Shown in pieces: positions 1 through 48,512 of a stretch of DNA of 64,000 nt. Within the stretch, counting starts at the first letter, position 1. Each line of letters opens with the position of its first letter. The notes under the pieces were generated by a model. That model made no database searches. It saw only the letters and a list, made by a program, of their open reading frames with translations, and was not told where the DNA came from. Source of the DNA: a virus (Duplodnaviria; Heunggongvirae; Uroviricota; Caudoviricetes); the IMG/VR virus record IMGVR_UViG_2556921669_000003, positions 1 to 64,000 of that record. The stretch is one strand, 5' to 3'. The position numbers and the translations under genes are program-made.

Positions 1-327
1 TCATGTGTCATGGTTGCCTCCTGGGTAGGCTCCGCCCGTGCTTGGGGTGGGTTCCTCGGCCCAATGATGCGTGGTGCCGAAATAGGTGGAGCCTTCCTTG
101 ATCGGAAAGGCTTCCATGACGCCCGGCACCTTCGATTGCGGGATTTCGACCATCAGCCGATTGTGGCCTTCGATCGAGAAGCGAGACTTCGCGATGCCGT
201 GCGCCATGAGAGCGTCGGCGTGATCCCGCGCGTCCTGGTTTTCGAGATAGCCGAGATCGACAATCACCGGCTTCGGTCCGTCGCCGTGGCTGGCATAGAC
301 CGTCTTGAGCATAAGGCTGCGGGTCAT
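1..327 (-). CDS. hypothetical protein (108 aa)
   Basis: Non-repetitive ORF; its ATG overlaps the stop of the upstream gene (ATGA coupling). Confidence 0.4.
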   Translation of the reverse strand: MTRSLMLKTVYASHGDGPKPVIVDLGYLENQDARDHADALMAHGIAKSRFSIEGHNRLMVEIPQSKVPGVMEAFPIKEGSTYFGTTHHWAEEPTPSTGGAYPGGNHDT

Positions 328-521
328 TCGTCACCGCCGATCGTGTTTCTGGTGGTGCGCCCAAGGATGCGACGGGCGATCCGGTCTTTTTCGTCGGCCA
401 GAACTTCCGCGATACCGGGGCCGCCCGGTTCGTCCCCCGACGCGAATTCTGCGTTGAGCACGTAGTTCGCGAAGTGTTCACGCAGCCATTGCCGCGCCTG
501 CCGTTTGGTCGTTTCAGCCAT
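324..521 (-). CDS. hypothetical protein (about 65 aa; start at internal ATG of the 324..641 ORF)
   Basis: Internal Met (MAETTKRQ...) preceded by a GGGGGCGATC SD-like sequence; the upstream part of the ORF is low-complexity. Confidence 0.3.
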   Translation of the reverse strand: MAETTKRQARQWLREHFANYVLNAEFASGDEPGGPGIAEVLADEKDRIARRILGRTTRNTIGGDE

Positions 522-891: not shown

Positions 892-1402
892 CGGAGCCTC
901 CATTGAGGAGAGTGCGGGCGCGGGCAAAGAGAGCGTTGGGGACGTAGTCCGCATCGTGGTAATCACACAGCTTTGAGAGAAACGCCTCCAGTTCGGCAAT
1001 GCGGGCCTCTGCCGCCTCGCGGCGCTTCTGTTCATAAAGGCAATCGCTTGCCATGTCTGTGGCAAGTTGCGTTTCCCGTTTCCTATCCAGCCCCATCGCC
1101 TCCGCCTTACGGGCCTCTGCGAGGATGGCGGACATGGCGACGGGGTTGCAGGCCGCGAGGTAGGCAGCATCAGCCGAATGCTTGAAGGTGGCGATCCGTC
1201 CGAACTTCTTGCCGTCCTTGATGGCGCTGAGGTCGTGAGATGTGTCCCACGTCGAAAATGGCGTGCCGACAGCCTCGGGTGCATAGCTCGGGTGGAATTG
1301 CCCCCAGCGGCCCGGCGTCACGCCTTCCAGCGCTTTCTCGATGAGCTCTATGGCCGCGCGCGCCGAGTCCCCCCGGCGCGCTTCGTTCACCTCAACCATC
1401 AC
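878..1402 (-). CDS. hypothetical phage protein (possibly Ead/Ea22-like)
   Basis: 174-aa non-repetitive ORF in an operon-like chain of overlapping stop/start codons. Confidence 0.45.
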   Translation of the reverse strand: MMVEVNEARRGDSARAAIELIEKALEGVTPGRWGQFHPSYAPEAVGTPFSTWDTSHDLSAIKDGKKFGRIATFKHSADAAYLAACNPVAMSAILAEARKAEAMGLDRKRETQLATDMASDCLYEQKRREAAEARIAELEAFLSKLCDYHDADYVPNALFARARTLLNGGSDAQG

Positions 1403-1635
1403 GCGGCCCTCCGCCCGTGATTGTCATTGCTTGCGGCCAGTTGCCGGGCAACACGCCGCAGGGCGCCGGCGATGACCTTGTTGCGGTGCGGCCAGCGGTC
1501 TTCGTGCCAATCGGCAACCAGCCCGAGCACTTCGGCGTTGTTCGTCGATGGCGACAGGTTCGCGATGACCTCGAGGCCGTCGCCGGTGTAGGTGCTGGCT
1601 TGGGGCTGGCGGATGGTGGCTTTGGGTTTTCTCAT
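1399..1635 (-). CDS. hypothetical protein (78 aa) ending ...ASNDNHGRRAA
   Basis: Start ATG preceded by CCACCCACCACATGAGGAGAAAACG, the window-wide CACCAC-SD module; C-terminal SNDN..AA motif. Confidence 0.5.
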   Translation of the reverse strand: MRKPKATIRQPQASTYTGDGLEVIANLSPSTNNAEVLGLVADWHEDRWPHRNKVIAGALRRVARQLAASNDNHGRRAA

Positions 1636-1674
1636 CGTTTTCTCCTCATGTGGTGGGTGGTACAAAAGTGCCGA

Positions 1675-3247: not shown

Positions 3248-3481
3248 TCAGGCGGCGATCTTGGAAAGCGCGCTGGCAGCCTTTTTCGCGGGGGAAAGAT
3301 CTTCCGTGCTTACGATGGCGTAAAGCGCGCCGCCTGTTGCCTTGTTGATCTTGCCGAGCGCCGCCTTGGCGCTGTCGCCAAACATGGTGAGACCAACGAC
3401 CTGCTTGGGGTTCGTCTGGCCGGCGAGCTTGCCGTGGGTGTAGGTGCCGTACACGTCGACTGTAACTTTGTGAGTCATCAT
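3248..3481 (-). CDS. hypothetical protein (77 aa), ends ...KIAA
   Basis: GAGGAGAGAATGATG initiation region; first gene of the leftward operon. Confidence 0.5.
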   Translation of the reverse strand: MMTHKVTVDVYGTYTHGKLAGQTNPKQVVGLTMFGDSAKAALGKINKATGGALYAIVSTEDLSPAKKAASALSKIAA

Positions 3482-3611: not shown

Positions 3612-4289
3612 TCAATAAGCGCCGGCCTGCACGATCAGATGGACGCTCACGACGTCGTCCTTGTCGAATTCAATGGGGATCGGCGGATTGTACTGCTCGA
3701 GCGTCAGGCGCGCGCCTTTCCAGCCTGTGAACTTCTTCACGAACCCGCGCGGTGGTTCGTCTTCACTCCGTGCGCGAATCTGCACAACGACGTGGTCGCC
3801 GTGCCTGACCGGCTTCGTTGGGTGGACGTATGCGATCTCGCGAGGGTAGTAGCGCGGCACCATCGATTCGCCGTCCAGAAAAACGGCATACGCGCCCGGA
3901 ACGTTGATAAGTGAGGGGATGCAGGGCACCCAATCCAGGATCTGGCCGTTGAAAATGTACTCGCCGTCCGCGCCGCCAACGGCTTCACCAAGTACCGGCA
4001 TCATCTTCGGAAGAGCGTTTGTCGGCACCTGGTTCAATGGCACGATGGTGGCGTTCGGGGCGGGGGAGGGGCGCCTGCCTTTTCGCTCGTCGATGAGTCG
4101 CTTCATTTCATCTTCCGGTATCTGCAGGGCGGCCGCCACCTCTCGCCAGATATGCGACCCTTTCACCTTGCCGGTCATGAAATTGTTGATGTTTTGCTGA
4201 TCCGTGCCGACGGCGCGCGCCAGCTCTGACTCGTTGCCGCCAAACGCGGCGTTGAGGCGTTCCCGGAGTCGCTCTTCGAGGCTGTCCAC
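3612..4289 (-). CDS. CI/LexA-like repressor: N-terminal XRE HTH plus C-terminal S24 peptidase domain with intact Ser (GESM) and Lys
   Basis: HTH in the first 60 aa; C-terminal ...FLDGESMVP...VKKFTGW... matches the LexA/CI autoproteolysis module. Confidence 0.8.
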   Translation of the reverse strand: MDSLEERLRERLNAAFGGNESELARAVGTDQQNINNFMTGKVKGSHIWREVAAALQIPEDEMKRLIDERKGRRPSPAPNATIVPLNQVPTNALPKMMPVLGEAVGGADGEYIFNGQILDWVPCIPSLINVPGAYAVFLDGESMVPRYYPREIAYVHPTKPVRHGDHVVVQIRARSEDEPPRGFVKKFTGWKGARLTLEQYNPPIPIEFDKDDVVSVHLIVQAGAY

Positions 4290-4352
4290 TTTTTATCTCC
4301 GTATTTTTTCAAGCGTTTACCACTCAGGGCAACAAAAAACAAACAAAGAAAT

Positions 4353-4380
4353 TGACAAAGAATTTGTGAATCGGTAGGGT
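4353..4380 (+). promoter_or_regulatory. variant operator-promoter (TTGACAAAGAATTTGTGAATCGG TAGGGT)
   Basis: TTGACA -35 plus a degenerate copy of the ACAAATTTGT palindrome; faces into the ORF-poor region. Confidence 0.3.
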
Positions 4381-4830
4381 TCAGTCACAAGAAACGAGGA
4401 CCTAGCATCGAGACGGTGGAACAAACGCCAGATCAATGCGGGACACAAGAAGACCGGAATAGCAGCAAGACGTGAAATGCGAAAGGAGCGCGGCCATCCG
4501 GCCGTAGCAAAAAGCCCACTAGAGGCAACTGCCCACCAAGAGGCAAAGAAGGAGACGGCAACATGCGGCAAACCTCCCAGGACGATCGCAGAAGAAGACT
4601 GACGGAAAAGCGAGGAGGCAGAAGAAGATACGTAGGGCGGGCGAGGGGCCCGCCGTAAGGGCCGCCATGATGACGGCCCATTTCCTGAGCGCCCTTTGGG
4701 GAGTTGAGGAAATGTGAGACGGGCGTAGTGCCCGCAACCCCGACCGACCGCTGTGGCTGCAACTTGGCGGTCGGTCGGGGGAGGAGGATGGGCCGTCCGG
4801 GCAACGCCGGGCGGCTTTGCTATTTATAGG
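4381..4830 (+). ncRNA. candidate non-coding RNA (purine-rich, T-poor transcript) in the immunity region
   Basis: About 260 nt with roughly 8% T on the plus strand; no credible ORF; ends at the perfect 14-bp inverted repeat CCCCGACCGACCGC..GCGGTCGGTCGGGG (4738..4780) followed by a T-rich tract. Confidence 0.25.
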
Positions 4831-5212
4831 AGCCGCGACCATGGCCCTATCACCACGGAAGAGGAGAGGTCATGGGTATTCAGCAAAGACAGATGGCTTA
4901 TCTTCAAACAAAGAAGATTACGGTCGAGGCGCTGTTCGCGATGCGGGCAGTGTCTACGGCCGGTTTTCGTTTTTCCAGCGGCCACCAACCGCGCAAGGCT
5001 GCGGCCACCACCTAGCTCGAAAGAGAGACGCAGCCGGCCTGGCTGACCGCCAGGCGAAATTCAACCCCCTTCAAAAGTTGACCCTAAGGCCGGCACCACC
5101 CGCTTAGCAACCAGTGAAGGGGTCCCTACTAGGACGAGGAGGAGGCGTGATGAGCGCCAGAACTCAGTCCGTTCGATACCGCCACCACAGCGGCAAGGAG
5201 TTGTTACTATAA

Positions 5213-5229
5213 CGGTACAAATTTGTCAA
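5213..5229 (-). promoter_or_regulatory. operator-promoter copy on the minus strand (TTGACAAATTTGTACCG)
   Basis: 14/17 identity to the PR operator; lies immediately 3' of the repressor-2 stop and points leftward into the ORF-poor region. Confidence 0.35.
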
Positions 5230-5247
5230 GCGTCACGCTACGGCAGC

Positions 5248-5874
5248 CTATGTGGCCACAGCGGTGAGTCGCTCCGCAAGGACGATGACGTGGATCGCCT
5301 CGATCGGCACGTCGAACTCGACAGCCCGTCCGTATTGCGCCAGCCGCGCCTTGTCGCCGTCGATGGAGACGAGGCGGCCAATCCACGCCACGCCCTTGCC
5401 GCTATGCACGAAGACCTCGTTTCCGGGCTTGGGGAAGGGGCGGCTGTCCACCCAGACCCTACAGCCGTAGAGGAGGGCGGGCTCCATGACGTTCGTGTCG
5501 ACGCGGACCACGTAGCGCCCATACGGCACGTAATTCGGACCGTAGCCCGACATGGCCGGTTCGAACTTGAACTTGCCTTCCTTGCGGTCAGCGATCTTTC
5601 CCTTCTCCTGCACCGTATCAAGCGTCGACATGTCGAGGGCGGTTCCGGCGCGAGCTTTCGCTTCCTCAGCCAGGCCATCCACTTCGGCACGCGGCACGCC
5701 CAGAAAGTCAGCCAGCCCATCTCGAACATCGTCGCGTGGTATCGTCCCGCGCTTCCAGCTATTGTAGGTCTGCTGCATCCATCCGTACTTCTCGCCGACG
5801 GCTCTATCCGTGAGCTTCAGCGCCTTCTGTCGGTCGGAAAGCATGAGGGCGAGGCGTGTTTTCTTCTTCACCAT
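5248..5874 (-). CDS. second CI-like repressor: XRE HTH plus S24-like domain lacking the nucleophile Ser (NVMEP in place of xSMxP)
   Basis: HTH MLSDRQKALKLTDRAVGEKYGWMQQTYNSWKRG; C-terminal LexA-fold alignment places Val at the catalytic Ser position. Start taken at MVKKK; the annotated TTG start lies inside the operator. Confidence 0.75.
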   Translation of the reverse strand: MVKKKTRLALMLSDRQKALKLTDRAVGEKYGWMQQTYNSWKRGTIPRDDVRDGLADFLGVPRAEVDGLAEEAKARAGTALDMSTLDTVQEKGKIADRKEGKFKFEPAMSGYGPNYVPYGRYVVRVDTNVMEPALLYGCRVWVDSRPFPKPGNEVFVHSGKGVAWIGRLVSIDGDKARLAQYGRAVEFDVPIEAIHVIVLAERLTAVAT

Positions 5875-5894
5875 GGAGGACTCGCAGAAAAAGC

Positions 5895-5923
5895 TTGACA
5901 AATTTGTAAAATGGTACTATAAA
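5895..5923 (+). promoter_or_regulatory. PR-like early promoter with operator: TTGACAAATTTGTAAAA, -10 TATAAA
   Basis: Consensus -35, 17-nt spacer and -10; the perfect palindrome ACAAATTTGT overlaps the -35; divergent from the repressor gene. Confidence 0.5.
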
Positions 5924-5992
5924 ATTCGACTGTCGGCAAGTCCACCAGACTCCGACCTGCGCGCAAGCGCACCACCACGCAGAGGAGAAACG

Positions 5993-6280
5993 ATGACGAT
6001 CATCACCAGCGATACGCTGGCGGATATGCGTGCTTGCCTGAATCGAGGCGAGACCATCGCAACCATCGCCAGACGATACGGCCTGAAAGACATGGCTGTC
6101 TACCAGCGTTTGCGCCGCGATCTCGGTGGGCCGCCCATTCCCGGCCCCGCAAACGACAACAACCCAGGCCGCGTGACCCGGATGACGCCGCACAACGGCG
6201 GCTGCTCGACGACGAGCGGCAAGATGCCCGTGACCCTGGTTCGCGTCCCGTCGGTTGATGGGGTGGCGGTGGCGGCATGA
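5993..6280 (+). CDS. small HTH DNA-binding protein (Cro-like early regulator), contains PANDN, ends ...VAVAA
   Basis: First gene after PR; GAGGAGAAACG SD; RGETIATIARRYGLKDMAVYQRLRR resembles an HTH. Confidence 0.55.
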   Translation: MTIITSDTLADMRACLNRGETIATIARRYGLKDMAVYQRLRRDLGGPPIPGPANDNNPGRVTRMTPHNGGCSTTSGKMPVTLVRVPSVDGVAVAA

Positions 6281-6579
6281 GCGACACCAGCAACACGACG
6301 CAGTGCGACTGCGACTACTTCGAGTTCGGCGACTGGGTTCGCTCTCGCCAAAATCCCAATCTCACCGGGCAGGTGATCGGCGAGCGAGGCTGGGGTGAGG
6401 AGTACGAAGTGCGCCTCGCCGACGGCCTCACCAAGACCTGGTGGAAAACCATTGAAATCGAGCACGACCCGGACGGCTCTCCGCCGGCCATGGAAGATGA
6501 CGACACGAACGTCGTCCGTGTGGATTTCACCAAACGGCGCGAACTGCGCGAGGATACGACAACGGGAGGGGCTGCGTGA
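6277..6579 (+). CDS. hypothetical protein (100 aa)
   Basis: ATGA overlap with the previous stop; acidic non-repetitive sequence. Confidence 0.5.
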   Translation: MSDTSNTTQCDCDYFEFGDWVRSRQNPNLTGQVIGERGWGEEYEVRLADGLTKTWWKTIEIEHDPDGSPPAMEDDDTNVVRVDFTKRRELREDTTTGGAA

Positions 6580-7940
6580 TGTACCAGAAGGGTCAGAATG
6601 TCAGAATGACGCGCGACTGCGATTGCGGCGGCTTCAAGAAAGGCGACGTGTTTATGCTGTCGAGAAGCCACAAGAGCGTCGCTTTCTTCGTTGACGCCGA
6701 CGGCGATGACCGTTGCCTCGAGCACAGCTTCGAACTCATCCCCGCCCTCATCATCGAACCAGGCAAGCACTACCGCACCCGCTCGGGCAAGCCGACGGGG
6801 CGTGTAACGGTTGGTGACACCGGCTTCGAAGCGGTCGTTGACGGGCGCGTGCGGATCTTCGACAAGGCCGGCGGCGCAGTTCATGGCGACGACGACATCG
6901 TCGAGGCGTGGGTGCCGAAGGTTGGGGAGCGGGTCGTAGAGGCCGAACCGAAGCAATACAACTTCCTCCGACACTGGTTCGACTACTGGCGGAGCGTCGA
7001 GGGCGTCCTGACGGACAACTCCTTCGTCGTCACAAAGGTGTGTGGTGCGACCGTTCATTACAGCAACCGTGTTGATGGGAACGGCCCCATAGCCGACATC
7101 GCTGACCTCGAACCGCTGCCCGTTGCCACGCAACCGGCAGCCCCGACCCTGAAAATCGAGGCGGGCCGCTACTACAAGACCCGCGATGGGCGGAAGGTTG
7201 GGCCAATGGTGCGAGCCGAAAACTGGCTGGCAGGATTCTATGATTCGGCGCGCCTAATCACTGGTCAGCGATGGGAAGGGGACGGATCCTTTATCGAGGG
7301 CCAAATCTCGAACCTCGACCTCGTCGCCGAATGGCAGGAAACCACCAACGTCGGCGCCCAGGTCGACACGCTGGCCGAGGAATACGGCTCGCCGCATCCC
7401 AGCAATGACAACGCGGCCAAGCCGAAGTTTAAGAAGGGCGATCGGATCAAGCTGGCGGCAGTCCACGAAATGGCGGGATATGGCCGCTTGGATGGCGAAA
7501 CAGGCACAGTGCTGGAAGATTCTTCTGTGCCCTACGTGAAGTGGGACAGGGATGGCGCGAAGCTCGCCATCTTGGAGAAGGAGGCGGACCTCATCGCCAC
7601 CACCCCGACCGTCACCACCTCCGCCATCGTCGCCCTCATCGAAAACGGCCAGCCCAAGCCTGCAGCCGTCCCGCACGTCCACGCTTCGGAAGCTGCCGCC
7701 ACCACGGAGGCGAACCGACTTGCCGGCGTTCACAAGGGCAAGCGGTTCGGCGTGTTCGTGCTGACCACGACAGCGGAAGAGGCGGCTCCGACCTACCGGC
7801 ACGAATGGCAGCGGCTGGCCGTTGCCGGCAAGAAAATCGACGCCATCCGAGAGCTTCGCGGCTTGACCGGGATGCAGTTGAAGCCGGCCAAGGATGTCGT
7901 CGAGCACTTCGTTGCCTACCCGTACGGGCAGGCCGCCTAA
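6576..7940 (+). CDS. hypothetical protein with a C-terminal ribosomal L7/L12-CTD-like domain
   Basis: C-terminal AGKKIDAIRELRGLTGMQLKPAKDVVE closely parallels the L7/L12 CTD core ([24 protein letters not shown]); internal repeated GxYYKTRxGxxVG motifs; contains SNDN. Confidence 0.6.
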   Translation: MMYQKGQNVRMTRDCDCGGFKKGDVFMLSRSHKSVAFFVDADGDDRCLEHSFELIPALIIEPGKHYRTRSGKPTGRVTVGDTGFEAVVDGRVRIFDKAGGAVHGDDDIVEAWVPKVGERVVEAEPKQYNFLRHWFDYWRSVEGVLTDNSFVVTKVCGATVHYSNRVDGNGPIADIADLEPLPVATQPAAPTLKIEAGRYYKTRDGRKVGPMVRAENWLAGFYDSARLITGQRWEGDGSFIEGQISNLDLVAEWQETTNVGAQVDTLAEEYGSPHPSNDNAAKPKFKKGDRIKLAAVHEMAGYGRLDGETGTVLEDSSVPYVKWDRDGAKLAILEKEADLIATTPTVTTSAIVALIENGQPKPAAVPHVHASEAAATTEANRLAGVHKGKRFGVFVLTTTAEEAAPTYRHEWQRLAVAGKKIDAIRELRGLTGMQLKPAKDVVEHFVAYPYGQAA

Positions 7941-8005
7941 CTCAACACCACCTCACCACCACAACAACCTGCTGCTGGTCCGCCAGCAGCAGGCGAGGAG
8001 ACGAT

Positions 8006-8260
8006 ATGTCGAAATCACCGGAAGTCGTCATCATCCATGAGACCGTCGCCAAGTCATGGCTGCGCGATCTCTCCACCTTCACACTGTTCGCTGCGCTCAT
8101 CGGGCTTGGCGTCCTGCTGGATAGCGGCGCGATGCAATGGATGGGCGCCATCATCGCATTCATCACTATCGTTGCGCGGGCGTCAGGTACGCACGGGCGG
8201 AGCCGGAAGACTATCGCGCAAGCTCGCCAGTTCCTTGACGATCTGGAGACAGCCGCTTGA
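8006..8260 (+). CDS. small membrane protein (84 aa, 2 TM)
   Basis: Start after a perfect 11-bp hairpin and GAGGAGACGAT; hydrophobic helices; ends ...ETAA. Confidence 0.45.
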   Translation: MSKSPEVVIIHETVAKSWLRDLSTFTLFAALIGLGVLLDSGAMQWMGAIIAFITIVARASGTHGRSRKTIAQARQFLDDLETAA

Positions 8261-8523
8261 CCCACCACCACAAGGACCCACCCGCTACCGAGACGCCGCG
8301 CGACTGGTGCGGCACCAAACACGGCTCGCTCTACAAGCCCCGCCGCACGCTCAAGCGGGCTGCAACTGCCTTCGTAGCGGCTGGCCTCACCGGCTTCACC
8401 TACGCCTTGCTGCCCGTGGCGTTCGCTGTTGGCGGGGCGGGCATCGGGCTCTGGTATGTCGGCGCCAAGTTCTACCAATGGCTCGACGCCGACCGCTCTG
8501 ACGAGGAGCCTCTGCGGTCGTGA
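8257..8523 (+). CDS. small membrane protein (88 aa, TTG start)
   Basis: TTGA overlap with the upstream stop; TM helices AATAFVAAGLTGFTYALLPVAFAVGGAGIGLWYVGA. Confidence 0.35.
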   Translation: MTHHHKDPPATETPRDWCGTKHGSLYKPRRTLKRAATAFVAAGLTGFTYALLPVAFAVGGAGIGLWYVGAKFYQWLDADRSDEEPLRS

Positions 8524-8613
8524 AGACCGTCCCGCTTAGGCTCGTTGTCGCCTTCGCAATCCTGCTGGTCCTTCTGGATCTGCTGACGTGACCACCCACC
8601 ACATGAGGAGAAA

Positions 8614-9435
8614 TTGATGTCAGTCTTTGACAGACTTGAACAAAAGCGAAAGCCGAAAGCTCCGGTCCTTGCCGTCTACGGTACGCCGGGCGTCGGCAAG
8701 ACCAGCCTTGCCTCTGAATTTCCAGACCCGCTTTACCTCTATGTCAACGGCGAGGAGCCGCCGGATGGCGTCGACATGCCGTCGGATGAAATCACGTCGT
8801 TCAACGGCCTGCTCGATACCTTCGGCGACCTCCTGACGGAAAAGCACCCTTTCCGCACCGTCATCATCGACAGCCTGGACAAGGTCGAGCCGATGGTCTG
8901 GGAGGAAACGTGCGCCCGGAACGGCTGGGACAACATCGACAGCAATGACAAGGGGGCTCCCACGGCGTTCGGCAAGGGCTTCCTCGGGGCCGACGTCGAA
9001 TGGCGAGAATACCACAACGCCGTCAGCGCACTTTCGCGCGCCGGAATCTACGTGATCCAGATCCTGCACAGCCAGACTAAGGCGTTCAAGGACCCCCTCG
9101 TGGATGACTACGACCGATATCGTCCCAAACTTCAGACCCGAGCTCTCGATCTCGTCATCGAGAACTGCAAGGCGCTGCTGTTCCTGAACCGCCGCACGTC
9201 CGTCAAGCAGGTGGACAAGGGCTTCGGCAAGAAGGAAGCAAAGCCGGAAGGCATGTCGGGATCCGAGCGCATCATCCACACCGACGAGCGCGCCGGGTTC
9301 CTCGCGAAGAATCGGCTGAACGGCGCACCGGCGACGATCCCGTACAAGCCGGGGCAGGGGTTCGCCGAGTTGTCGAAGTACTTCGCGGCCAACGACAACG
9401 TGGCTGACGAGCATGAAGAGCGGGAGGCGGCGTGA
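8614..9435 (+). CDS. Sak4-like / AAA_24 family ssDNA-annealing ATPase
   Basis: Walker A GTPGVGKTS near the N-terminus; size and position (next to an SSB-like gene) typical of Sak4; C-terminus ...FAANDNVADEHEEREAA. Confidence 0.7.
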   Translation: MMSVFDRLEQKRKPKAPVLAVYGTPGVGKTSLASEFPDPLYLYVNGEEPPDGVDMPSDEITSFNGLLDTFGDLLTEKHPFRTVIIDSLDKVEPMVWEETCARNGWDNIDSNDKGAPTAFGKGFLGADVEWREYHNAVSALSRAGIYVIQILHSQTKAFKDPLVDDYDRYRPKLQTRALDLVIENCKALLFLNRRTSVKQVDKGFGKKEAKPEGMSGSERIIHTDERAGFLAKNRLNGAPATIPYKPGQGFAELSKYFAANDNVADEHEEREAA

Positions 9436-9677
9436 TGTTTGTGCTGCCCGTCATCGCCGCCGCAGCGGCAAGCACCGCAATGGCTAGCAGAGCCTCAATA
9501 ATGAGCACCCACATCGCAATGGCTGGCCGGAGGGACTGCCGACGTCCGGGCGGAGGTGGCGGCGTCCGCATCCACCAAGACAGCGGACACGCAGTCTCCG
9601 TCCCGGTCTCAGCCCCAACCTCCGAGCCTCAACGTGATCCGATCGAATTCGACTCGTCGGCTTGGACGGGGCGCTAG
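9432..9677 (+). CDS. questionable small ORF (81 aa)
   Basis: GTGATG overlap with the upstream gene; hydrophobic N-terminus then Arg/Gly-rich; moderate GC3. Confidence 0.2.
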   Translation: MMFVLPVIAAAAASTAMASRASIMSTHIAMAGRRDCRRPGGGGGVRIHQDSGHAVSVPVSAPTSEPQRDPIEFDSSAWTGR

Positions 9678-9680
9678 CCC

Positions 9681-9830
9681 ATGTTCGAACGCGACACATG
9701 GTTCGCCTGGTTCCCGGTCCCGGCCCGGACCGCCTACGGAACGCGCCTCGCATGGCTGGAAACAGTCTTCCGCGAGCGCTTTGTGACAGCCAGTACCGCC
9801 AGCAAGTGGCGTTACTACATCACCGCCTAA
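9681..9830 (+). CDS. small hypothetical protein (49 aa, Trp-rich; not on the ORF track)
   Basis: Protein-like sequence MFERDTWFAWFPVPARTAYGTRLAWLETVFRERF...; its stop TAA is followed by the CCACCACAGCAGGAGAAG module of the next gene. Confidence 0.3.
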   Translation: MFERDTWFAWFPVPARTAYGTRLAWLETVFRERFVTASTASKWRYYITA

Positions 9831-9852
9831 CCACCACAGCAGGAGAAGTAAG

Positions 9853-10425
9853 ATGGCAAATCTCGGCCAGCGATTTAACGCTCAGGACCACGATACCGAG
9901 CAGAGAGACTATGCCGAACTTCCGAACGGCATCTACCAGATGGAAATCGAGGCGTCCGACGTCGGCCCGACCAAGGCGGGCAGCGGCATGATTCTCAAGA
10001 CGACGAACGTCGTCATCGCACCGGACGCGTACAAGGGTCGCAAGCTCTTCAACAACTATAACCTCGAGAACCCGAATCCGCAGGCCCAGGAAATCGGCCA
10101 GCGCCAATTCGCCAGCCTTTGCCGCGCCATCGGCGTGGACAGCGTGGAAGACAGCGAGGACTTGCACTTCAAGTCCTTCACCGTGAAGGTCAGCCTCGGC
10201 AAGGCGCAGAACGGGTATCCGGCCCGCGCCGAAATCAAGTCCTACTACTTCCCCGACCAGGGCAACGTGCCGGAACCGGCGATTGATGCCGTCCAGCCGG
10301 CCGCACAGCCCACCGCCGCCAACGACAACCGGCGCCCCGCTGCCAACGACAACCACCAGCAACAATCGGCCGCCCGTCCGGCTGCGGCAGCAACCGGCGC
10401 GCGTCCGTGGGGGCAGAAGAAGTAA
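9853..10425 (+). CDS. putative phage ssDNA-binding protein; low-complexity C-terminal tail with two AANDN copies
   Basis: Position after the Sak4-like gene; acidic/aromatic core, then ...TAANDNRRPAANDNHQQQ... Confidence 0.4.
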   Translation: MANLGQRFNAQDHDTEQRDYAELPNGIYQMEIEASDVGPTKAGSGMILKTTNVVIAPDAYKGRKLFNNYNLENPNPQAQEIGQRQFASLCRAIGVDSVEDSEDLHFKSFTVKVSLGKAQNGYPARAEIKSYYFPDQGNVPEPAIDAVQPAAQPTAANDNRRPAANDNHQQQSAARPAAAATGARPWGQKK

Positions 10426-10671: not shown

Positions 10672-11106
10672 ATGATGAAACGACTTATCCTGGCCGCCAT
10701 GCTTGCGGCCGTCACGGTCCTCGCCGGCTGCACCGACGACGACGCCAAGATCGCGTCTGCGAACATCACCAAGGCGGCCGACAACTTCGAGATCAATCGC
10801 CGCGTCGTGTTCTACAACGGCATCACCAACAGCTACATCCTGTCGGTCGAAGGACTTTGCTCCATGGACCTGAACAGCGCCGGCACGGCGTTCAACGTGA
10901 TCTGCAAAGTTGGTCCCAGCCAGTACAAGCGCCATACGCTCGTGCTTTCCGACAACACCAGCGCGTTCGTCGAGCAGTTGGAGCCGGCCAAGGCTAGCGC
11001 CTACCACTACCGCGTGACCTTCAAGCCGCAGGCCATCCTGCCCGACATCGACTTCCGGGGCGATGCTGGTGAGCTGACCACCAACAGCAGCGAGGCGAAC
11101 CAGTGA
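10672..11106 (+). CDS. lipoprotein (signal peptide plus lipobox LAGC), possible superinfection-exclusion moron
   Basis: MMKRLILAAMLAAVTVLAGCTDD...; start preceded by a hairpin with a CACCAC loop and AGAGGAGAGA. Confidence 0.6.
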   Translation: MMKRLILAAMLAAVTVLAGCTDDDAKIASANITKAADNFEINRRVVFYNGITNSYILSVEGLCSMDLNSAGTAFNVICKVGPSQYKRHTLVLSDNTSAFVEQLEPAKASAYHYRVTFKPQAILPDIDFRGDAGELTTNSSEANQ

Positions 11107-11930
11107 CCGACTACAAGGCAGAAGCCTCCAAAATAAAGCAAGCTTGCTACCCGATTCCCGGCGCGTTCGCTGCCGGTGGAGCGGTGACGAGCGTTTTCAC
11201 CGGCAAGCCCATCAACGACGTTGACGTCTATTTCAAGAGCCGGGAAGCCTTTGAGGCTGCGGTGGCCTCGGCGTACGACGAGGGCTGGTGGTGCGTCTCG
11301 TCATCGAAGCGCGCTGTCACCTTCAGCGACAATGGCGGCACGCCCGTCCAGTTCATGCATTTCGACTTCTTCCCGACGGCGCACGCAATCTTCGACGCGT
11401 TCGATTTCACAGCCGTCATGGGAGCGTTGGATTTCGACACGGGCGAATTCGTCTTCCATGACGACTTCCTGAAGCACAACTCGCAGCGGTTCCTGCGTTT
11501 CCACCCCGGCACCCGCTTCCCGCTGGCATCGGCAACGCGCGTCCTGAAATACCAAGGCCGTGGCTATACGATCGGCAAGGGCGACGTCCTCAAGATCGTT
11601 CTGGCGGGCCGCAAGGTGAAGCTGGAATCCTGGGACGACCTGAAGGACCAGATCGGCGGCGCATACGGCGAAAAGGTCGTGTTCGGGACCGAGGGCAAGG
11701 AGTTCACGCTCGACGCGGCCATCGACGCTCTTACCGTGGATGACGCTGGCAAGGAAATCTGGATCGCGAACGACAACGACGCCCAGCCAGGCAGCGCCAT
11801 CGAACTGCACCGCAGGCTTTCCGCGTTGAAGGACGAGCAGTTCGACGCCAGCCGGTTCGAGGATGGCGAAGATGGGGATGGCTGGCCCGTTGGCTACGAG
11901 CATCCCGCCCGCATTCGTTGGGCCGCCTAG
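11103..11930 (+). CDS. nucleotidyltransferase-fold protein (Pol-beta-type GGx12DVD motif)
   Basis: GGAVTSVFTGKPINDVDVYF matches hG[GS]x9-13Dh[DE]h; downstream acidic FDAFDF; contains IANDN; ends ...RIRWAA. Confidence 0.45.
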   Translation: MTDYKAEASKIKQACYPIPGAFAAGGAVTSVFTGKPINDVDVYFKSREAFEAAVASAYDEGWWCVSSSKRAVTFSDNGGTPVQFMHFDFFPTAHAIFDAFDFTAVMGALDFDTGEFVFHDDFLKHNSQRFLRFHPGTRFPLASATRVLKYQGRGYTIGKGDVLKIVLAGRKVKLESWDDLKDQIGGAYGEKVVFGTEGKEFTLDAAIDALTVDDAGKEIWIANDNDAQPGSAIELHRRLSALKDEQFDASRFEDGEDGDGWPVGYEHPARIRWAA

Positions 11931-12006
11931 ATCAACCTGCCGCATGGCCACCACCATGCGGCAATCACCACACCACGGTAGCTACCCGCTACGAGAGGAG
12001 ACACCC

Positions 12007-13059
12007 ATGCACCTTGTGATCCACAAGGAGGACCTGACGCGCGTCCTAGGCGCTGTCGCCAAGGTCGTCGAAAGCCGCAACACCATCCCAATCCTGTCCT
12101 GCGTCATGCTGACAGCAGCAGCAAGCGGCGGCGCTGGCGGCCTGTCCGTCATGGCCACCGACCTTGATATCCTCGCTACGGCCGGTGCGCCTGCGACCGT
12201 CAACGCAGCGGGCAGCACCTGCGTCGAAGCGAAGCTGCTCACCGATATCGCCCGCAAGGCGACCGGCGACATCACCATGATCCTGGACGGCGACAAGTTG
12301 GTCGTGAAGTCGGGCCGGTCTCGCTTCAGCTTGCAGACCTTGCCGTCGTCAGACTTCCCGGATCTTGGTACGCACAAGTACGACGCCGAATTCGAGACGG
12401 ACCTTGCCGCACTGTTCGCGCCGGTGGCGTTTGCGATCTCGACAGAGGAAACCCGTTTCTACTTGAACGGCATCTACCTCGAGCCGACCGCCGCCACGGC
12501 AACGGACGGGCACCGATTGGGTACCAATGCGGCCGACCTGCCGGAGTTCGCACCGGTCATCGTCCCGCGCAAGCTTGTCAGCCTCGTGCCGAAGGGCGCC
12601 GTGAAGGTCTCTGTCAGCCAGCAGAAAATCCGGTTGGAGACCGCGGCGCTCACGCTCACTTCGAAGCTGATCGACGGTACGTACCCGGACTATCGCCGCA
12701 TCATGCCGAAGCAGAACGACAAGCTCATCACTGTCGATCGTGACGCACTCATGAAGGCTGCGGACCGCGTTTCAACGGTGTCGTCCGAGCGTGGCCGCGC
12801 GGTGAAACTCAGCATCGCGCCCGGCTCGATATCCTTGGCCGTCAGCAGCGTGGATGCGGGTACGGCTGAAGACGAAATCGAGGCGGACTACAGCGGCGAA
12901 CCGCTAGATATCGGCTTCAATGCCGCTTACCTCAAGGAGCTTCTAGGCGCTCTTCCCGCTGGCGAAGTGACGATCGCACTGGCGGACAGCGGCTCGCCGA
13001 CGCTGATCAAGGGCGGAACAGAGGGGCTTTCGTTAGTTCTGATGCCCATGCGGGTGTAG
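12007..13059 (+). CDS. dnaN: DNA polymerase III beta subunit (sliding clamp), phage-encoded
   Basis: 351 aa with the three-domain DnaN architecture; start ATG after GAGAGGAGACACCC. Confidence 0.8.
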   Translation: MHLVIHKEDLTRVLGAVAKVVESRNTIPILSCVMLTAAASGGAGGLSVMATDLDILATAGAPATVNAAGSTCVEAKLLTDIARKATGDITMILDGDKLVVKSGRSRFSLQTLPSSDFPDLGTHKYDAEFETDLAALFAPVAFAISTEETRFYLNGIYLEPTAATATDGHRLGTNAADLPEFAPVIVPRKLVSLVPKGAVKVSVSQQKIRLETAALTLTSKLIDGTYPDYRRIMPKQNDKLITVDRDALMKAADRVSTVSSERGRAVKLSIAPGSISLAVSSVDAGTAEDEIEADYSGEPLDIGFNAAYLKELLGALPAGEVTIALADSGSPTLIKGGTEGLSLVLMPMRV

Positions 13060-15516: not shown

Positions 15517-16020
15517 ATGAACAAAACCAAGACAACTACCACTGCTACAGCCCGCCCCGCCGACTTCGATGCTCGCGTCATGACGTACATGCCCGGCCTT
15601 CGACGCTTGGCCGCGAAGCACGTCCCGCGTCCGTATCGTGAAGACCTCGTGAATGACACCGTCATGTACGCGCTGGAGAACTGGCGGAACTATCGCGAAA
15701 CCGGCGCCATGTGGTCGTGGCTGGAGTGGACGATGCGCGGCATCGTCACCAACGCCGCAAAGAAGGCAGCCACGCGCGACAAGCACGTCCGTTTCGTGCC
15801 GCTCACCCATCAGGATTCTGCTGTAGCGCCCGCACAGGAAGGCTATGTCCGGCTTTCCGAGACCCTGCGCGGCTTGGCGGCCCACCGCCACGGGACTGTG
15901 CTTATGCGGCGCGCTATGGGCGACACGCTGAGAGAAATAGCGGCCGACCGCGGCGCGACCAAGGAGTGGGTGCGCCAGATGGAAGTGGCCGCCCGCCGCG
16001 AACTGAGGGCAGCAGCATGA
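15517..16020 (+). CDS. ECF-type sigma-70 family sigma factor
   Basis: Region 2-like DLVNDTVMYALENWRNY and region 4 HTH LREIAADRGATKEWVRQMEVAARRELR; ends ...LRAAA. Confidence 0.6.
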   Translation: MNKTKTTTTATARPADFDARVMTYMPGLRRLAAKHVPRPYREDLVNDTVMYALENWRNYRETGAMWSWLEWTMRGIVTNAAKKAATRDKHVRFVPLTHQDSAVAPAQEGYVRLSETLRGLAAHRHGTVLMRRAMGDTLREIAADRGATKEWVRQMEVAARRELRAAA

Positions 16021-16181: not shown

Positions 16182-16558
16182 TGCGCATCATCTCAGAATC
16201 CGAATTCGCGGCCCGCATCCGTGCGTTGCTCGCCGACACCCGACCCAACGTTGGTAGCGTCACCGGTCCGGGGCGCTCCGGCGCTATCGCTGCTGTCTAT
16301 GCCAGCCATATCCTGGGCGTGCCGTTCATTCCCTATGGGAGCAAGGTGCCCACGCACCTCGGCAGCCTCCTGATTATCGACACGGCCATGGAGAGCGGGG
16401 CGACCCTGCGCAAGGCGGAGCGCCGCTACGCTGAGGCGAGTCCGGTCGTGCTGGCCTGCTATGAGGAGCCGCCGCGCGTGGCGTTCTGGTATGAGGCGCG
16501 CAAGCCGCAGCGGTATAGGCACGAGAATGATAATGGGCCGATGTGGGAGGTGGCGTGA
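16178..16558 (+). CDS. type I phosphoribosyltransferase-fold protein
   Basis: PRPP-binding signature LLIIDTAMESGATL; C-terminus ...RHENDNGPMWEVA. Confidence 0.55.
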   Translation: MMRIISESEFAARIRALLADTRPNVGSVTGPGRSGAIAAVYASHILGVPFIPYGSKVPTHLGSLLIIDTAMESGATLRKAERRYAEASPVVLACYEEPPRVAFWYEARKPQRYRHENDNGPMWEVA

Positions 16559-16956
16559 TGCGGCTAGTTGTTACTGGCGGGCGCGACTACCGCGACACGG
16601 AGCGCGCGTTCGCGGCGCTGGATGACCTTCACGCGCGCCGCCCCGTGACAGTGGTCATCGAGGGGGAGGCAGATGGCTTGGACAAGCGCGCCAAGGCATG
16701 GGCCAGGCGGCGCGGCATCGCGGTCGAGCCGTATCCCGCAACGTGGGATGACGTGGACCATCCGGCGGCTGTGGTGCGCTACCGCCGCGACGGCAAGCCG
16801 TACGACGCAAACGCAGGCCCGCGTCGAAACCAGCAGATGATTGACGATGGCCGCCCGGACTACGGGATGGTGTTTCCGGGAGGGGCTGGCACGGCAGACA
16901 TGCGCTGCCGGCTCGTTGCGGCTGGCGTGCCGTTTGAGGAGGTTGATCGTGCTTGA
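16558..16956 (+). CDS. LOG/SLOG-family (DUF2493/YspA-like) Rossmann-fold protein
   Basis: VVTGGRDY...D and PGGAGTADM resemble LOG-family motifs GGGxxG and PGGxGTxxE. Confidence 0.5.
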   Translation: MRLVVTGGRDYRDTERAFAALDDLHARRPVTVVIEGEADGLDKRAKAWARRRGIAVEPYPATWDDVDHPAAVVRYRRDGKPYDANAGPRRNQQMIDDGRPDYGMVFPGGAGTADMRCRLVAAGVPFEEVDRA

Positions 16957-18727
16957 ACTCCGCTATTATCAACGCGCCAGTTTGGACGCATTGTATTCCT
17001 ACTGGCGCAATGGCGGCGGTAACGGCCTCATCGTGCTGCCAACCGGTGCTGGTAAGGCATTAGTTATTGCTAAATTAATTGAGGAACTGCTGGCCGACTA
17101 TCCGGACATGCGGATTCTCAACGTCACGCATTCCGCCAGTCTGGTAGGCCAAAACTTCGAGGAGTTCATTAAGCTCAGCCCGTTCGCGCCCGCTGGCATC
17201 TACTCGGCCGGCCTGAACCGCAGGGATGCGCACGCTCAGATTCTATTCTGCGGCATCCAGTCCATCTGGAACAAGGTCGACCAGCTTGGCCCGATTGATC
17301 TCGTCATTGTCGATGAGGCGCACGCCATCTCGCGGAACGCGAACACGCAGTATGGACAGTTCTTCAAGGCGGTTCGTGTCGCCAATCCGGACAGCCGAAC
17401 CTGTGGTACGACGGCCACCGACTACCGCATGGATTCTGGCCGTCTGACGGACGATCTGGAAGACGACGAGCCGCTTGCTGGTCTCGCCACCTTGCCGGAG
17501 TTCTACGATCCAGAAGTCGACTTGGTGAAGCCCGCCAAGTTCAAACTCTTCGACGACGTCGTGTATGAAATCGGCATCGGTGAACTGATCGAGCAGGGCT
17601 ATCTCACTCGCCTCACGAGTGCACGCACCGCATCGAAGATCGACCTAAAGGGCGTTGGCACACGCGGTGGCGAATACATCCCAGGCCAGATTTCTGCCGC
17701 TGCGGAACGCATCATCGAGGAGGCCGTGGCTGAGGACATGGTTCTGTCAGAAGGACGGCGAGCCGGTCTGTTCTTCAGCACGAGCAAGGACAACGCCAAC
17801 CACGTCGCGGAAGCAATCCGCCGGCACGGCCGGACCTGCGCCGTCCTGACAAGCGACAACGCGCACCAGACCAAGGAGATTTTTGAAGGCTTCCGGTCCG
17901 GTAAATACTGGGCGATCAGTTCAGTTTCAATGATCACAACGGGCACCAATTTCCCCTTCGTGGATTTCATCAGCTTGATTCTGTCGACGAAAAGCGCTGG
18001 AAAGTTGGTCCAGATATTGGGCCGCGGCACGCGCAACTCACCGGGGAAGACGGAATGCCTCATCGCGGACCATGGGAAGAATTTGGCCTACCATGGGCCG
18101 ATCGACCAGATTCGACCAAAGCCGCCCGGCAGCGGCGACGGAGAGGCGCCCCGCAAGACTTGTCCGTCTGAAGAGACGCCAGGTGCGGTGCGTGACGAGA
18201 ACGGCAACTTTGGCTGCGGGGAAAACATCCACGCTTCCGCCAAGACGTGCCACTGCTGCGGCTATGTCTTCCCGCCGAGCGAGGACGTGAAGATCACCGC
18301 GCAGGCCGCGGATGCGCCGGTGCTGTCCAATGCCCCGGCGGAATCCCGCATCGTCCGGAAGCGGACCTTCTGGCACCACGAAGGGAAGGGGGGCAAGCCG
18401 GACAGCGTCAAGGTGGTATACACCATAGGCATGAGCCTGGTTTCCGAATGGCTTTGCCCTGAGCATGAAGGCTATCCGCGCAGCAAGTCACAGCGATTCT
18501 GGAAGAAACATGGCGGAAGCACACCGTACCCTAAGACCGTCATGGAGTGGCTATCGCGCCAAAACGAACTGGCCGAGACGGCAGAGGTGTTGGTTGCCCC
18601 CCGCGATAAATACTGGGACGTGAAAGAATGGATCGTTAGTGTGGCGGCCAACGACAACGTGCCGGCTGCGGCAAATGAAAACCACTCAAAGCTTGAATGG
18701 GCGATGGACGACTCCATACCTTTCTAG
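16949..18727 (+). CDS. SF2 (DEAH) DNA helicase with internal Cys4 zinc ribbon; C-terminus ...AANDN...AMDDSIPF
   Basis: Walker A LPTGAGKAL, DEAH box VIVDEAHAI, motif VI QILGRGTR; GTG start after GAGGAGG; last six residues resemble the SSB C-terminal tip DDDIPF. Confidence 0.75.
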   Translation: MLELRYYQRASLDALYSYWRNGGGNGLIVLPTGAGKALVIAKLIEELLADYPDMRILNVTHSASLVGQNFEEFIKLSPFAPAGIYSAGLNRRDAHAQILFCGIQSIWNKVDQLGPIDLVIVDEAHAISRNANTQYGQFFKAVRVANPDSRTCGTTATDYRMDSGRLTDDLEDDEPLAGLATLPEFYDPEVDLVKPAKFKLFDDVVYEIGIGELIEQGYLTRLTSARTASKIDLKGVGTRGGEYIPGQISAAAERIIEEAVAEDMVLSEGRRAGLFFSTSKDNANHVAEAIRRHGRTCAVLTSDNAHQTKEIFEGFRSGKYWAISSVSMITTGTNFPFVDFISLILSTKSAGKLVQILGRGTRNSPGKTECLIADHGKNLAYHGPIDQIRPKPPGSGDGEAPRKTCPSEETPGAVRDENGNFGCGENIHASAKTCHCCGYVFPPSEDVKITAQAADAPVLSNAPAESRIVRKRTFWHHEGKGGKPDSVKVVYTIGMSLVSEWLCPEHEGYPRSKSQRFWKKHGGSTPYPKTVMEWLSRQNELAETAEVLVAPRDKYWDVKEWIVSVAANDNVPAAANENHSKLEWAMDDSIPF

Positions 18728-18806: not shown

Positions 18807-19244
18807 ATGATGAATCGTGAGAGAAGATGCCGGCTTGAACAATCAGGCGCACGCATTGAAAGCCTGATCTGGATTCCCGGCGCGACGGCAAGCGACGTGT
18901 TGCCGGGCGGCCTTAAAGATGCGATTTCCGAGGACCTCTACGAGAACAATGAGCAGGTCCTCTCAAAGGTGCCCGGCCTCGCTCACATTCTGACGAGCAA
19001 TGAGAGTCCGGATTTCGAGGAAGTTGCGGAAATCCTGTGCGATGTCGATGGCTTTCTGGCGCAGATCGCAGCGCCAATCCCAACGAAATTCTACGAAGGC
19101 GGCGGGTTCTCGTATAGCTGGGGCTACTACCAGACCAAGTGGGTTCACGCCGACAACCTTGATGAGTTGACCGCCTTGGCTGAAGAGTTCGGTAAGGATG
19201 TGGTCGAGCGAGCCCGCGCGAATGAACTGGCGGATGCAGCATGA
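18807..19244 (+). CDS. hypothetical protein (145 aa) under operator-promoter control
   Basis: Acidic protein; ends ...ELADAA. Confidence 0.5.
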   Translation: MMNRERRCRLEQSGARIESLIWIPGATASDVLPGGLKDAISEDLYENNEQVLSKVPGLAHILTSNESPDFEEVAEILCDVDGFLAQIAAPIPTKFYEGGGFSYSWGYYQTKWVHADNLDELTALAEEFGKDVVERARANELADAA

Positions 19245-19741: not shown

Positions 19742-19761
19742 CCACCACCACCGAGGAGACA

Positions 19762-20568: not shown

Positions 20569-20786
20569 TGACGCACGAAGAAGCCATGGACATCATCAAG
20601 AGTGCAACGGCGTCCGACCGCGAGGCGGTTCGTGCCACTGCGCAACTTGTGCTCGCCGCCGTCAAGGCTGCGGGTGCCCTCAGTCTAATGCCCGCGCCTC
20701 ACCTTCCCAAATCCGGCCTCCTGCTGATGGTGCACCCCGAGGTTTATGAGCAGGTGCGACCGCTGACGAAAGAGGATGCAGCATGA
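20565..20786 (+). CDS. hypothetical protein (73 aa)
   Basis: ATGA overlap; ends ...KEDAA. Confidence 0.4.
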   Translation: MMTHEEAMDIIKSATASDREAVRATAQLVLAAVKAAGALSLMPAPHLPKSGLLLMVHPEVYEQVRPLTKEDAA

Positions 20787-27894: not shown

Positions 27895-27954
27895 GAAACG
27901 AAAAATAAGCCACCCCGGCCTCACCAGCCAACCACCACCACAGAGGAGATCACG

Positions 27955-47104: not shown

Positions 47105-47106
47105 TC

Positions 47107-48503: not shown

Positions 48504-48512
48504 GAGAACACC

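Follow-up and report, generated by a model that had tools for sequence, protein, structure and literature searches.

The gene at positions 6576–7940 (+) of a 64,000-nucleotide (nt) stretch of tailed-phage DNA (positions 1 to 64,000 of IMG/VR record IMGVR_UViG_2556921669_000003, hereafter the window) encodes a 454-amino-acid protein, here called the target protein, whose C-terminal segment is, by sequence comparison, a genuine relative of the helix 4–turn–helix 5 hairpin in ribosomal protein bL12's C-terminal domain (CTD). The homology covers this hairpin only and not the full L12 CTD. The remainder of the protein is built from mobile phage modules, and the whole is a mosaic early protein of the p074/phrog_4317 family, carried by a temperate, siphovirus-type, 16-3-like rhizobial prophage. 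An initial annotation, made from the letters of the DNA, had described an early phage protein ending in a ribosomal L7/L12 CTD-like module that could recruit or sequester translational GTPases.

The target protein ends in an L12-type hairpin

Pfam searches at E ≤ 10 returned a single family for the target protein, PF00542 (Ribosomal_L12), with residues 417–444 matching positions 9–36 of the 67-position profile, and no helix-hairpin-helix (HhH), helix-turn-helix (HTH) or UBA family. The full-length protein scored 22.6 bits (E = 1.4e-4), below the gathering cut-off of 25.9 bits, and the last 86 residues scored 25.9 bits (E = 1.3e-5); close homologues score 27–28 bits and carry a precomputed PF00542 label, and many homologues exceed the cut-off, the match being partial in every case. 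Searching the PDB with the target sequence by phmmer placed bL12 chains on top at E of about 0.03. A family profile of the tip, for which 28 family members contributed their last 55 residues, reached E = 5.5e-7, and its top 15 matches were all bL12, with nothing else significant. The profile alignment runs without gaps along residues 60–89 of Escherichia coli L12 (loop, helix 4, turn and helix 5), and 14 of these 30 residues are identical, including K65, I69, R73, T76, G77, L80, K81, K84, D85 and E88, and the target keeps the L12 signature K-I-x-x-I-[KR]-x-x-R...T-G-x-x-L-K-x-A-K-D-x-V-E (Table 1). Within the family, K420, I424 and K439 of the hairpin are invariant and I421, R428 and L435 nearly so. 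The factor-contacting positions of E. coli L12 are reported (Helgstrand 2007, Kothe 2004) to be K65, V66, I69, K70, R73, L80 and K84, and in the alignment the residue at every one of them is retained or conservatively replaced.

The segment is also predicted to be folded, with a predicted local distance difference test score (pLDDT) of 91–98 in the AlphaFold2 (AF2) models. The initial annotation had named the lack of a profile match and predicted disorder as grounds for abandoning the L7/L12 assignment; we found neither, and the assignment holds for the helix 4–turn–helix 5 core. Its extension to a complete CTD (beta1-alpha4-alpha5-beta2-alpha6-beta3) does not hold: beyond helix 5 the chain has only 10 more residues, the canonical beta2-alpha6-beta3 that should follow the hairpin is absent, and strand beta1 is not contiguous. 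When the C-terminal 115 residues were modelled alone (pLDDT 90.9, predicted template modelling score (pTM) 0.60), Foldseek gave a best E of 0.5 and no L12 match, which argues against a complete L12 CTD. The L12 N-terminal domain was likewise not found, the TIGR00855 match covering only positions 65–94 of 125 and reaching 16.8 bits where the cut-off is 84.4. This sub-threshold L12 match was the only one in the NCBIfam scan and PADLOC returned no defence or anti-defence system, and an assignment of the target protein to either of these categories was dropped.

We considered whether an Ala/Lys-rich amphipathic helix pair might resemble L12 by chance. The sub-cut-off Pfam score of the full-length protein and the single-sequence PDB E-values of only about 0.03 would allow this, but the family profile, the homologues above the Pfam cut-off and the hhalign match to hairpin repeats described below make it very improbable; on these comparisons, we regard chance resemblance as essentially excluded. 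An EF-Ts N-terminal/UBA-like or HhH identity of the hairpin was also rejected, as Pfam yielded only Ribosomal_L12 and the PDB profile only bL12.

The three-helix unit occurs as an autonomous module

Together with a lead-in helix, the hairpin forms a unit of approximately 41 residues, in which the lead-in helix is followed by a KIxAIKxxRxxTGxGLKEAKDxVE hairpin. A phmmer search with the last 55 residues of the target against 1.84 billion cluster representatives revealed this unit in 933 of them at E ≤ 1e-3. Apart from relatives of the target within its family, the best matches were mostly non-ribosomal proteins containing 3–8 tandem copies (P0127–P0245; for example P0128, P0136, P0138 and P0200, the last being Clostridium gasigenes QSW21420.1), which annotation pipelines label 'ribosomal protein L7/L12'. 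Reading of the repeat sequences (P0128, P0129, P0130, P0133, P0136, P0138, P0200 and P0245 were inspected) revealed that an N-terminal hydrophobic segment, probably membrane-spanning, often precedes the repeats. PF00542 covers the tandem units over the partial range 8–40 of 67, with scores of up to 156 bits. Alignment of the phage-family C terminus with the tandem units by hhalign gave a probability of 99.1% and E = 1.4e-18 over 41 columns, and took in the lead-in helix (YRHEWQRLA versus ERDLRQLLA). Because the unit recurs in tandem in non-ribosomal proteins and aligns with them at this level, the rest of the CTD is not needed, and the sequences indicate an autonomous three-helix module that is derived from the L12 hairpin or shares ancestry with it. 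A permuted L12/ClpS-like domain (a beta1-like AIVALIE, then beta-alpha-beta, with the hairpin at the end) was also considered, but such an arrangement would be unnecessary, given that other proteins have the three-helix unit on its own.

One of the tandem proteins is 4192 residues long with 8 matched stretches, and in P0133 LRV/HEAT repeats are joined to six complete L12 CTDs.

The hairpin is an exchangeable tip on a modular phage protein

The open reading frame (ORF) was confirmed. Its GTG start overlaps the stop of the upstream gene, and the NCBI version of the protein begins at the ATG at 6579 and has 453 residues. The G+C content at third codon positions (GC3) is 0.78, compared with 0.44 for second positions, which identifies the frame as the coding one; the long antisense ORFs are the usual by-product of 62% GC DNA. 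Shinella sp. DD12 has a 100% identical protein, the hypothetical protein SHLA_4c000950, and the target matches phrog_4317 (E = 1.3e-20). Its SH3-like barrels, its YKTRDGRKVG...DLIAEW core and the location of its gene between the immunity region and a Sak4-like annealase gene are those that define the p074-like proteins of this family.

An AF2 model of the full protein from a 65-sequence alignment (mean pLDDT 82, pTM 0.41) suggests beads on a string (Table 1), with SH3-like barrels and copies of a repeated module, which we call the R-module, making up the N-terminal 340 residues in place of an L12 N-terminal domain and hinge. Foldseek comparison of the whole model with the PDB retrieved the multi-KOW region of Spt5 (E = 1e-5), the SH3 repeats of Mind bomb, tandem Tudor domains and NusG, in agreement with the Pfam matches in homologues, where SH3_15 and SH3_12 fall on barrel 1 and, in homologue P0004, SH3_12 falls at the equivalent place of barrel 3. 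The internal GxYYKTRxGRKVG repeats pointed out in the initial annotation proved to be two copies of a module of approximately 60 residues, namely the R-module (residues 58–112 versus 192–255; pairwise BLASTP E = 2e-6). Phages (Brucella phage EF4, for example) and metagenomes also encode the R-module (YKTRDGRKVG...DLIAEW) as stand-alone proteins of 100–125 residues, and the database search with it (proteins P0250–P0369) found unnamed small phage proteins only. It belongs to no Pfam family, and its profile retrieved only spurious WD40 matches from the PDB (E ≥ 0.007) and no solved structure. The middle loop of the module is hypervariable. In the C-terminal region AF2 confidently places strands at residues 350–356, 359–362 and 390–395 and helices at 372–385, 410–416, 420–431 and 435–447. 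The alpha/beta unit that precedes the three-helix unit has no sequence match in the PDB; its structural likeness to ClpS is a short match (48 residues) with no sequence support.

The family search yielded at least 569 homologues, nearly all from genomes of Rhizobiaceae and Phyllobacteriaceae, prophages and soil metagenomes, with metagenomic relatives at E down to 1e-223; the counts per homologue given here are from the best 120. Many are already named 'ribosomal protein L7/L12' or 'ribosomal L7/L12 domain-containing protein'. R-module copy 2 is the most conserved part of the family and forms its conserved core together with barrel 2, and copy 1 is found in about 22 of the 120. The SNDN motif, also noted initially, lies in a linker at residues 276–279 (nt 7401–7412), and 89/120 homologues have NDN at this place, mostly as A[SA]NDNA. 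The C terminus varies: about 96/120 homologues carry the alpha/beta unit and the L12-type hairpin, about 10 have a helix pair without the L12-type residues, 3 end after the alpha/beta unit and 14 have unrelated modules, such as a Lys-rich helix (as in p074 of phage 16-3) or an extra SH3-like unit. Gene position is constant across homologues with and without the hairpin. A search with the 115-residue C terminus alone returned 6 relatives only, owing to the word prefilter. Judged by these sequences, the L12-like hairpin is an accessory, exchangeable tip.

Table 1. Features of the target gene and of its surroundings. Nucleotide positions are those of the window, and residues are those of the target protein.
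Feature	Position (nt)	Residues	Strand	Remark
Coding sequence, p074-like, phrog_4317 mosaic early protein of 16-3-like rhizobial prophage	6576..7940		+	
SH3/KOW/Tudor-like beta-barrel 1, FKKGD motif	6576..6740	1–55	+	AF2 strands E8–54
R-module copy 1, IEPGKHYRTRSGKPTG...DIVEAW	6747..6911	58–112	+	BLASTP versus copy 2
SH3-like barrel 2, inserted helix, PKVGERV motif	6912..7130	113–185	+	invariant G117, V120; pLDDT 91–96
R-module copy 2, IEAGRYYKTRDGRKVGP...variable loop...DLVAEW	7137..7343	188–256	+	invariant G197, Y200, G205, W253; phrog_23578
Disordered linker with SNDN	7344..7421	257–282	+	pLDDT <50 at residues 257–279
SH3-like barrel 3, KPKFKKGDRI motif	7422..7595	283–340	+	invariant F285, D289; AF2 strands 290–339
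Small alpha/beta unit, beta-beta-alpha-beta, AIVALIENGQPKP...FGVFVL	7614..7766	347–397	+	
Three-helix mini-domain	7794..7916	407–447	+	helix YRHEWQRLA, then L12-like helix 4-turn-helix 5; pLDDT 95–98
L12-matching stretch of the mini-domain	7818–7907	415–444	+	
Hairpin residue		K420		E. coli L12 K65
Hairpin residue		I421		E. coli L12 V66
Hairpin residue		I424		E. coli L12 I69
Hairpin residue		R425		E. coli L12 K70
Hairpin residue		R428		E. coli L12 R73
Hairpin residues		T431-G432		E. coli L12 T76-G77
Hairpin residue		L435		E. coli L12 L80
Hairpin residue		K436		E. coli L12 K81
Hairpin residue		K439		E. coli L12 K84
Hairpin residue		D440		E. coli L12 D85
Hairpin residue		E443		E. coli L12 E88
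C-terminal Ala-Ala	7932..7937	453–454	+	ssrA-like terminus
S24/LexA-type repressor-like gene (phrog_4)	3612–4289		-	immunity region, upstream of target gene
S24/LexA-type repressor-like gene (phrog_4)	5248–5901		-	immunity region, upstream of target gene
Genes ending in Ala-Ala	1399–1665(-), 3248–3481(-), 6277–6579, 6576–7940, 8614–9435, 11103–11930, 14147–15136			
Genes ending in Ala-Ala, continued	15517–16020, 18807–19244, 19241–19741, 19726–20568, 20565–20786, 20783–21433, 22700–24004			
Genes ending in Ala-Ala, continued	28530–29150, 29150–30049, 34187–35857, 37897–38469, 43662–43928			

Possible roles of the L12-like tip

Residues of the L12 CTD are reported (Helgstrand 2007, Kothe 2004, Diaconu 2005) to contact EF-Tu, EF-G, IF2 and RF3 at their G domains, and the hairpin of the target protein keeps the charged and hydrophobic face by which they do so. 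We tentatively suggest that the tip may be a soluble docking surface for a translational GTPase (EF-Tu, EF-G, IF2 or RF3) or for another partner that recognizes the L12 CTD, with the barrels and R-modules supplying a second, phage-specific binding activity; the protein would then act as a tether or adaptor, not as an enzyme, and host ClpXP with SspB could limit its lifetime by way of the Ala-Ala C terminus and the NDN motif in the linker. GTPase docking as such is plausible. The isolated L12 CTD binds factors weakly, which would make a single hairpin copy a poor sequestering agent, and stoichiometric sequestration of EF-Tu by one hairpin on an early and probably fast-turnover protein seems unlikely. 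Between the two activities raised in the initial annotation, docking or recruitment is thus the more defensible.

Several observations, among them the weak binding just mentioned, weigh against docking to a translational GTPase. Any partner of the hairpin is predicted from homology, and the resemblance to L12 spans only approximately 30 residues, of which the conserved I421, I424 and L435 may instead form the core of the three-helix bundle. Many homologues, p074 of phage 16-3 included, do without the hairpin, so that the core function of the family would be independent of it, and the target gene adjoins recombination and replication genes, not translation genes. The hairpin can, moreover, be read as an HhH-like pattern, for which there is no Pfam HhH match.

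These points leave room for a substantial, if lesser, possibility that the three-helix unit is a re-used generic interaction or nucleic-acid-binding module, HhH-like and L12-related, that binds DNA, RNA or a replication or recombination protein, in which case the target would be an early-module scaffold unconnected to translation. Nucleic acids or peptides are common ligands of SH3/Tudor/KOW-type barrels, LTGMQLKPAKDVVEHF in the hairpin can be read as fitting the HhH pattern hxxhxGhGxxxAxxhh, and the hairpin is replaced by unrelated C-terminal modules in some homologues; in the window as in phages 16-3 and RHph_X2_25, the gene keeps its position between the immunity region and the genes for Sak4-like, SSB-like, beta-clamp, Cas4 exonuclease and helicase proteins. 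By contrast, the significant PDB profile matches were all bL12, Pfam offered Ribosomal_L12 and none of the HhH, HTH or UBA families, and the L12-type surface lysines and arginine are kept in the unrelated hairpin-repeat proteins, which points to a shared L12-like ligand.

A functional bL12 substitute built into the host ribosomal stalk is, in our estimate, extremely improbable. The thought draws on one phage bL12-domain protein that E. coli was made to express and that mass spectrometry then detected (one peptide) in purified 70S and 100S ribosome fractions, but tagged phage bL12 was unusable for affinity purification of ribosomes (PMC6375957). The target has only 30 residues of the CTD, no uL10-binding N-terminal domain and no hinge; lacking the L12 N-terminal domain, it cannot join the stalk as L12 does, and stalk replacement is essentially excluded.

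Ala-Ala termini and look-alikes of the SsrA tag

The target protein ends ...YGQAA, with a free C-terminal Ala-Ala of the kind called ssrA-like C-motif 1, and a terminal Ala-Ala-COOH is the determinant for ClpX. The same ending is present in 118/120 homologues irrespective of their C-terminal module. Among the 72 GC3-supported genes of the window, 19 end in Ala-Ala (background frequency of the AA dipeptide, 1.9%; binomial P 1e-16), compared with 2–3 of 72 in offset controls; the 19 genes are spread from 1.4 to 44 kb (Table 1), with none beyond 44 kb. Ala-Ala ends were found in 11/82 genes of phage 16-3 and in 7/26 genes of the RHph_X2_25 region, in both of which the gene at the target position and its two upstream neighbours all have them, and in 0/55 genes of Pseudomonas phage D3112 (64% GC). 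We rejected the idea that these termini are a by-product of stop/start overlaps (GCATGA or GCGTGATG): the codons and stop codons vary, several of the genes, the target gene included, have no overlapping downstream start, and neither the offset controls nor the Pseudomonas phage show a comparable number. This variation suggests that it is the protein on which selection acts.

The motif NDN is also in excess, with 16 occurrences in about 16,100 residues of window proteins versus 0.97 expected (16-fold), mostly as AANDN in C-terminal tails. The host transfer-messenger RNA (tmRNA) tag, identified with ARAGORN in Rhizobiaceae and Mesorhizobium genome loci (L011, L049, L050, L068 and L072), is ANDNYAEARLAA, and near-copies of it form the ends of the Sak4-like protein (8614–9435; ...AANDNVADEHEEREAA), the methyltransferase (22700–24004; ...AANDNDLFSAAAA) and the proteins of 20783–21433 (...AANDNEEARVAA), 29150–30049 (...AANDNLMAAIDAYAA) and 1399–1665(-) (...ASNDNHGRRAA). 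Recent capture of the tag as DNA was rejected, since the codons of the phage tails differ from those of the tmRNA gene, which argues for mimicry at the protein level. These tails look like genetically encoded SsrA-tag mimics and are candidate SspB/ClpXP degrons; the Caulobacter ssrA tag AANDNFAEEFAVAA has been used experimentally as a degradation tag (PMC1233412), and no account of encoded SsrA-like tags in rhizobiophages turned up in a limited literature search. The SNDN linker and Ala-Ala end of the target fit this phage-wide pattern, which suggests a lifetime limited by SspB/ClpXP.

The (A)ANDN motif was located at 5990–6280, 9853–10425, 11103–11930, 16841–18727, 27811–28461 and 32217–34190 and, at L004, at 45017–45967 and 46996–48735. 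It also occurs in C-terminal tails that do not end in Ala-Ala, for example those of the SSB-like protein (AANDNRRPAANDNHQQQ), the helicase (AANDNVPAAANEN...DDSIPF, an end that resembles the tip of SSB) and the large terminase and, in phages 16-3 and RHph_X2_25, those of the Cas4 exonuclease and the helicase.

Taken further, the pattern would make the target mainly a host Clp substrate, decoy or adaptor that times or saturates host proteolysis early in infection, with NDN docking SspB, Ala-Ala engaging ClpX and the ClpS-like alpha/beta unit contacting Clp. The frequency of both motifs among the homologues and the tag-like ends of the neighbouring early proteins fit this role, which we nevertheless consider improbable: Ala-Ala tails and ANDN are common to functionally unrelated phage proteins (Sak4-like protein, methyltransferase and exonuclease) and so look like a general turnover signal, the NDN lies approximately 175 residues from the C terminus of the target, and the ClpS match is the short one described above. 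Also unlikely is a combination in which encoded SsrA mimics (AANDN...AA) are shared by a group of early and replication proteins that includes the target, the mimic being split in the target into NDN linker and Ala-Ala end. Much of the early proteome would then be wired to host SspB/ClpXP, and the target would be a short-lived adaptor that docks a GTPase or titrates a stalk-recognizer, for example a stalk-dependent toxin, in a defined window after induction.

Genomic setting

Upstream of the target gene lies an immunity region with two repressor-like genes (Table 1), which are separated by a 1-kb stretch of low coding potential. The rightward operon starts with genes for an HTH protein and a phrog_28502 protein (6277–6579), followed by the target gene and genes for two small hydrophobic proteins, probably membrane proteins. 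Genes for the following products come next: Sak4-like annealase, DUF669/SSB-like protein, beta-clamp, Cas4-type exonuclease, sigma factor, SLOG protein, helicase, exonuclease, methyltransferase and primase, after which come the large terminase, portal and tape measure genes. This order is matched in Rhizobium phage RHph_X2_25 and in phage 16-3 (PR, p072, p073, p074, p075, p076 and Sak4-like), and is kept in metagenomic contigs that encode a variant of the target with a different C terminus. The gene position, with repressors upstream and replication/recombination, packaging and tail genes downstream, marks the target as an early phage protein, and this part of the initial annotation is borne out by context and by synteny with both phages.

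The prophage carries its own DNA polymerase III beta-clamp (11863–13059), sigma-70-family factor (15517–16020) and SLOG/YAcAr protein (16543–16956). The RHph_X2_25 orthologue of the latter is annotated as a 'putative GTP-binding protein'; as a phage-specific partner of the target it was rejected, the window orthologue being a SLOG/YAcAr protein and not a GTPase. A tRNA-Met (CAT) gene is located inside the prophage at 30776–30851, between the replication and packaging modules. The next gene has its ATG at 8006, and between its Shine-Dalgarno sequence and the target stop there is a perfect 10-bp inverted repeat without a T-run at 7969–7992 (CTGCTGCTGG-TCCG-CCAGCAGCAG). A tract rich in CA, CACCACCTCACCACCACAACAAC, precedes the repeat, and tracts of a similar kind, CCACCACCAC, are found after the stops of 8006–8260 and 19241–19741. 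An Rfam scan of 4000–10000 gave no match, and a promoter/terminator scan gave background level only.

Comparison with known systems

ClpS and the L12 CTD share the SCOP 'ClpS-like' fold. The target differs from the ClpAP adaptor ClpS (PDB 3O2O and 4YJM) in that its match covers a short stretch without support from sequence, and Foldseek finds none. With the bL12 CTD itself (PF00542; PDB 1CTF and 1RQU) it shares a gap-free alignment of residues 415–444 to E. coli L12 60–89, but it is a 454-residue phage protein that has neither the N-terminal dimerization/uL10-binding domain and hinge nor beta2-alpha6-beta3, and Foldseek of its C-terminal model does not recover L12. The tandem hairpin-repeat proteins have the same 41-residue three-helix unit as the target, but in 3–8 copies, without SH3-like barrels and often behind an N-terminal hydrophobic segment.

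Within the p074 family, QWY83257.1 of RHph_X2_25, a 'ribosomal L7/L12 domain-containing protein', is 41% identical over 74% of the target, and the proteins of Rhizobium, Sinorhizobium, Mesorhizobium and Agrobacterium prophages that PGAP names 'ribosomal protein L7/L12' are of the same family and gene position; the number of barrels and R-modules varies among these relatives. Phage 16-3 p074 shares family and gene position and differs in its Lys-rich helical C terminus, which replaces the alpha/beta unit and the L12 hairpin. Phage 16-3 is thus a natural 'no-hairpin' control for a family of more than 560 homologues in Rhizobiaceae prophages. If the hairpin docks translational GTPases, this family would be a tractable temperate-phage case of a borrowed factor-recruiting tip of the ribosomal stalk. 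The SsrA look-alikes and Ala-Ala ends are potentially more informative than the L12 tip, and suggest proteome-wide use of host ClpXP by the phage.

The idea that an L12 CTD in a phage protein could engage translation factors has already been proposed. Mizuno et al. (2019, Nat Commun 10:752; PMC6375957) described bL12 domains within large phage polypeptides, including AGF88397 of Salmonella phage FSL SP-076 as well as AHI60108 of Erwinia phage Ea9-2, found these domains to be patchy among homologues with the EF-G/EF-Tu contact residues conserved, considered that they were possibly acquired independently several times, and proposed that they might be interfaces for translation factors. The target resembles these proteins in carrying a PF00542-type segment, with the contact residues retained, in a larger proviral protein whose homologues have the segment only patchily. 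It differs in protein family, host clade and genome context, and in having the hairpin only, placed at the extreme C terminus and known here from sequence. The L12 resemblance of the family is already present in public annotation and in the literature, and the target adds to them a well-dissected member, not a new concept.

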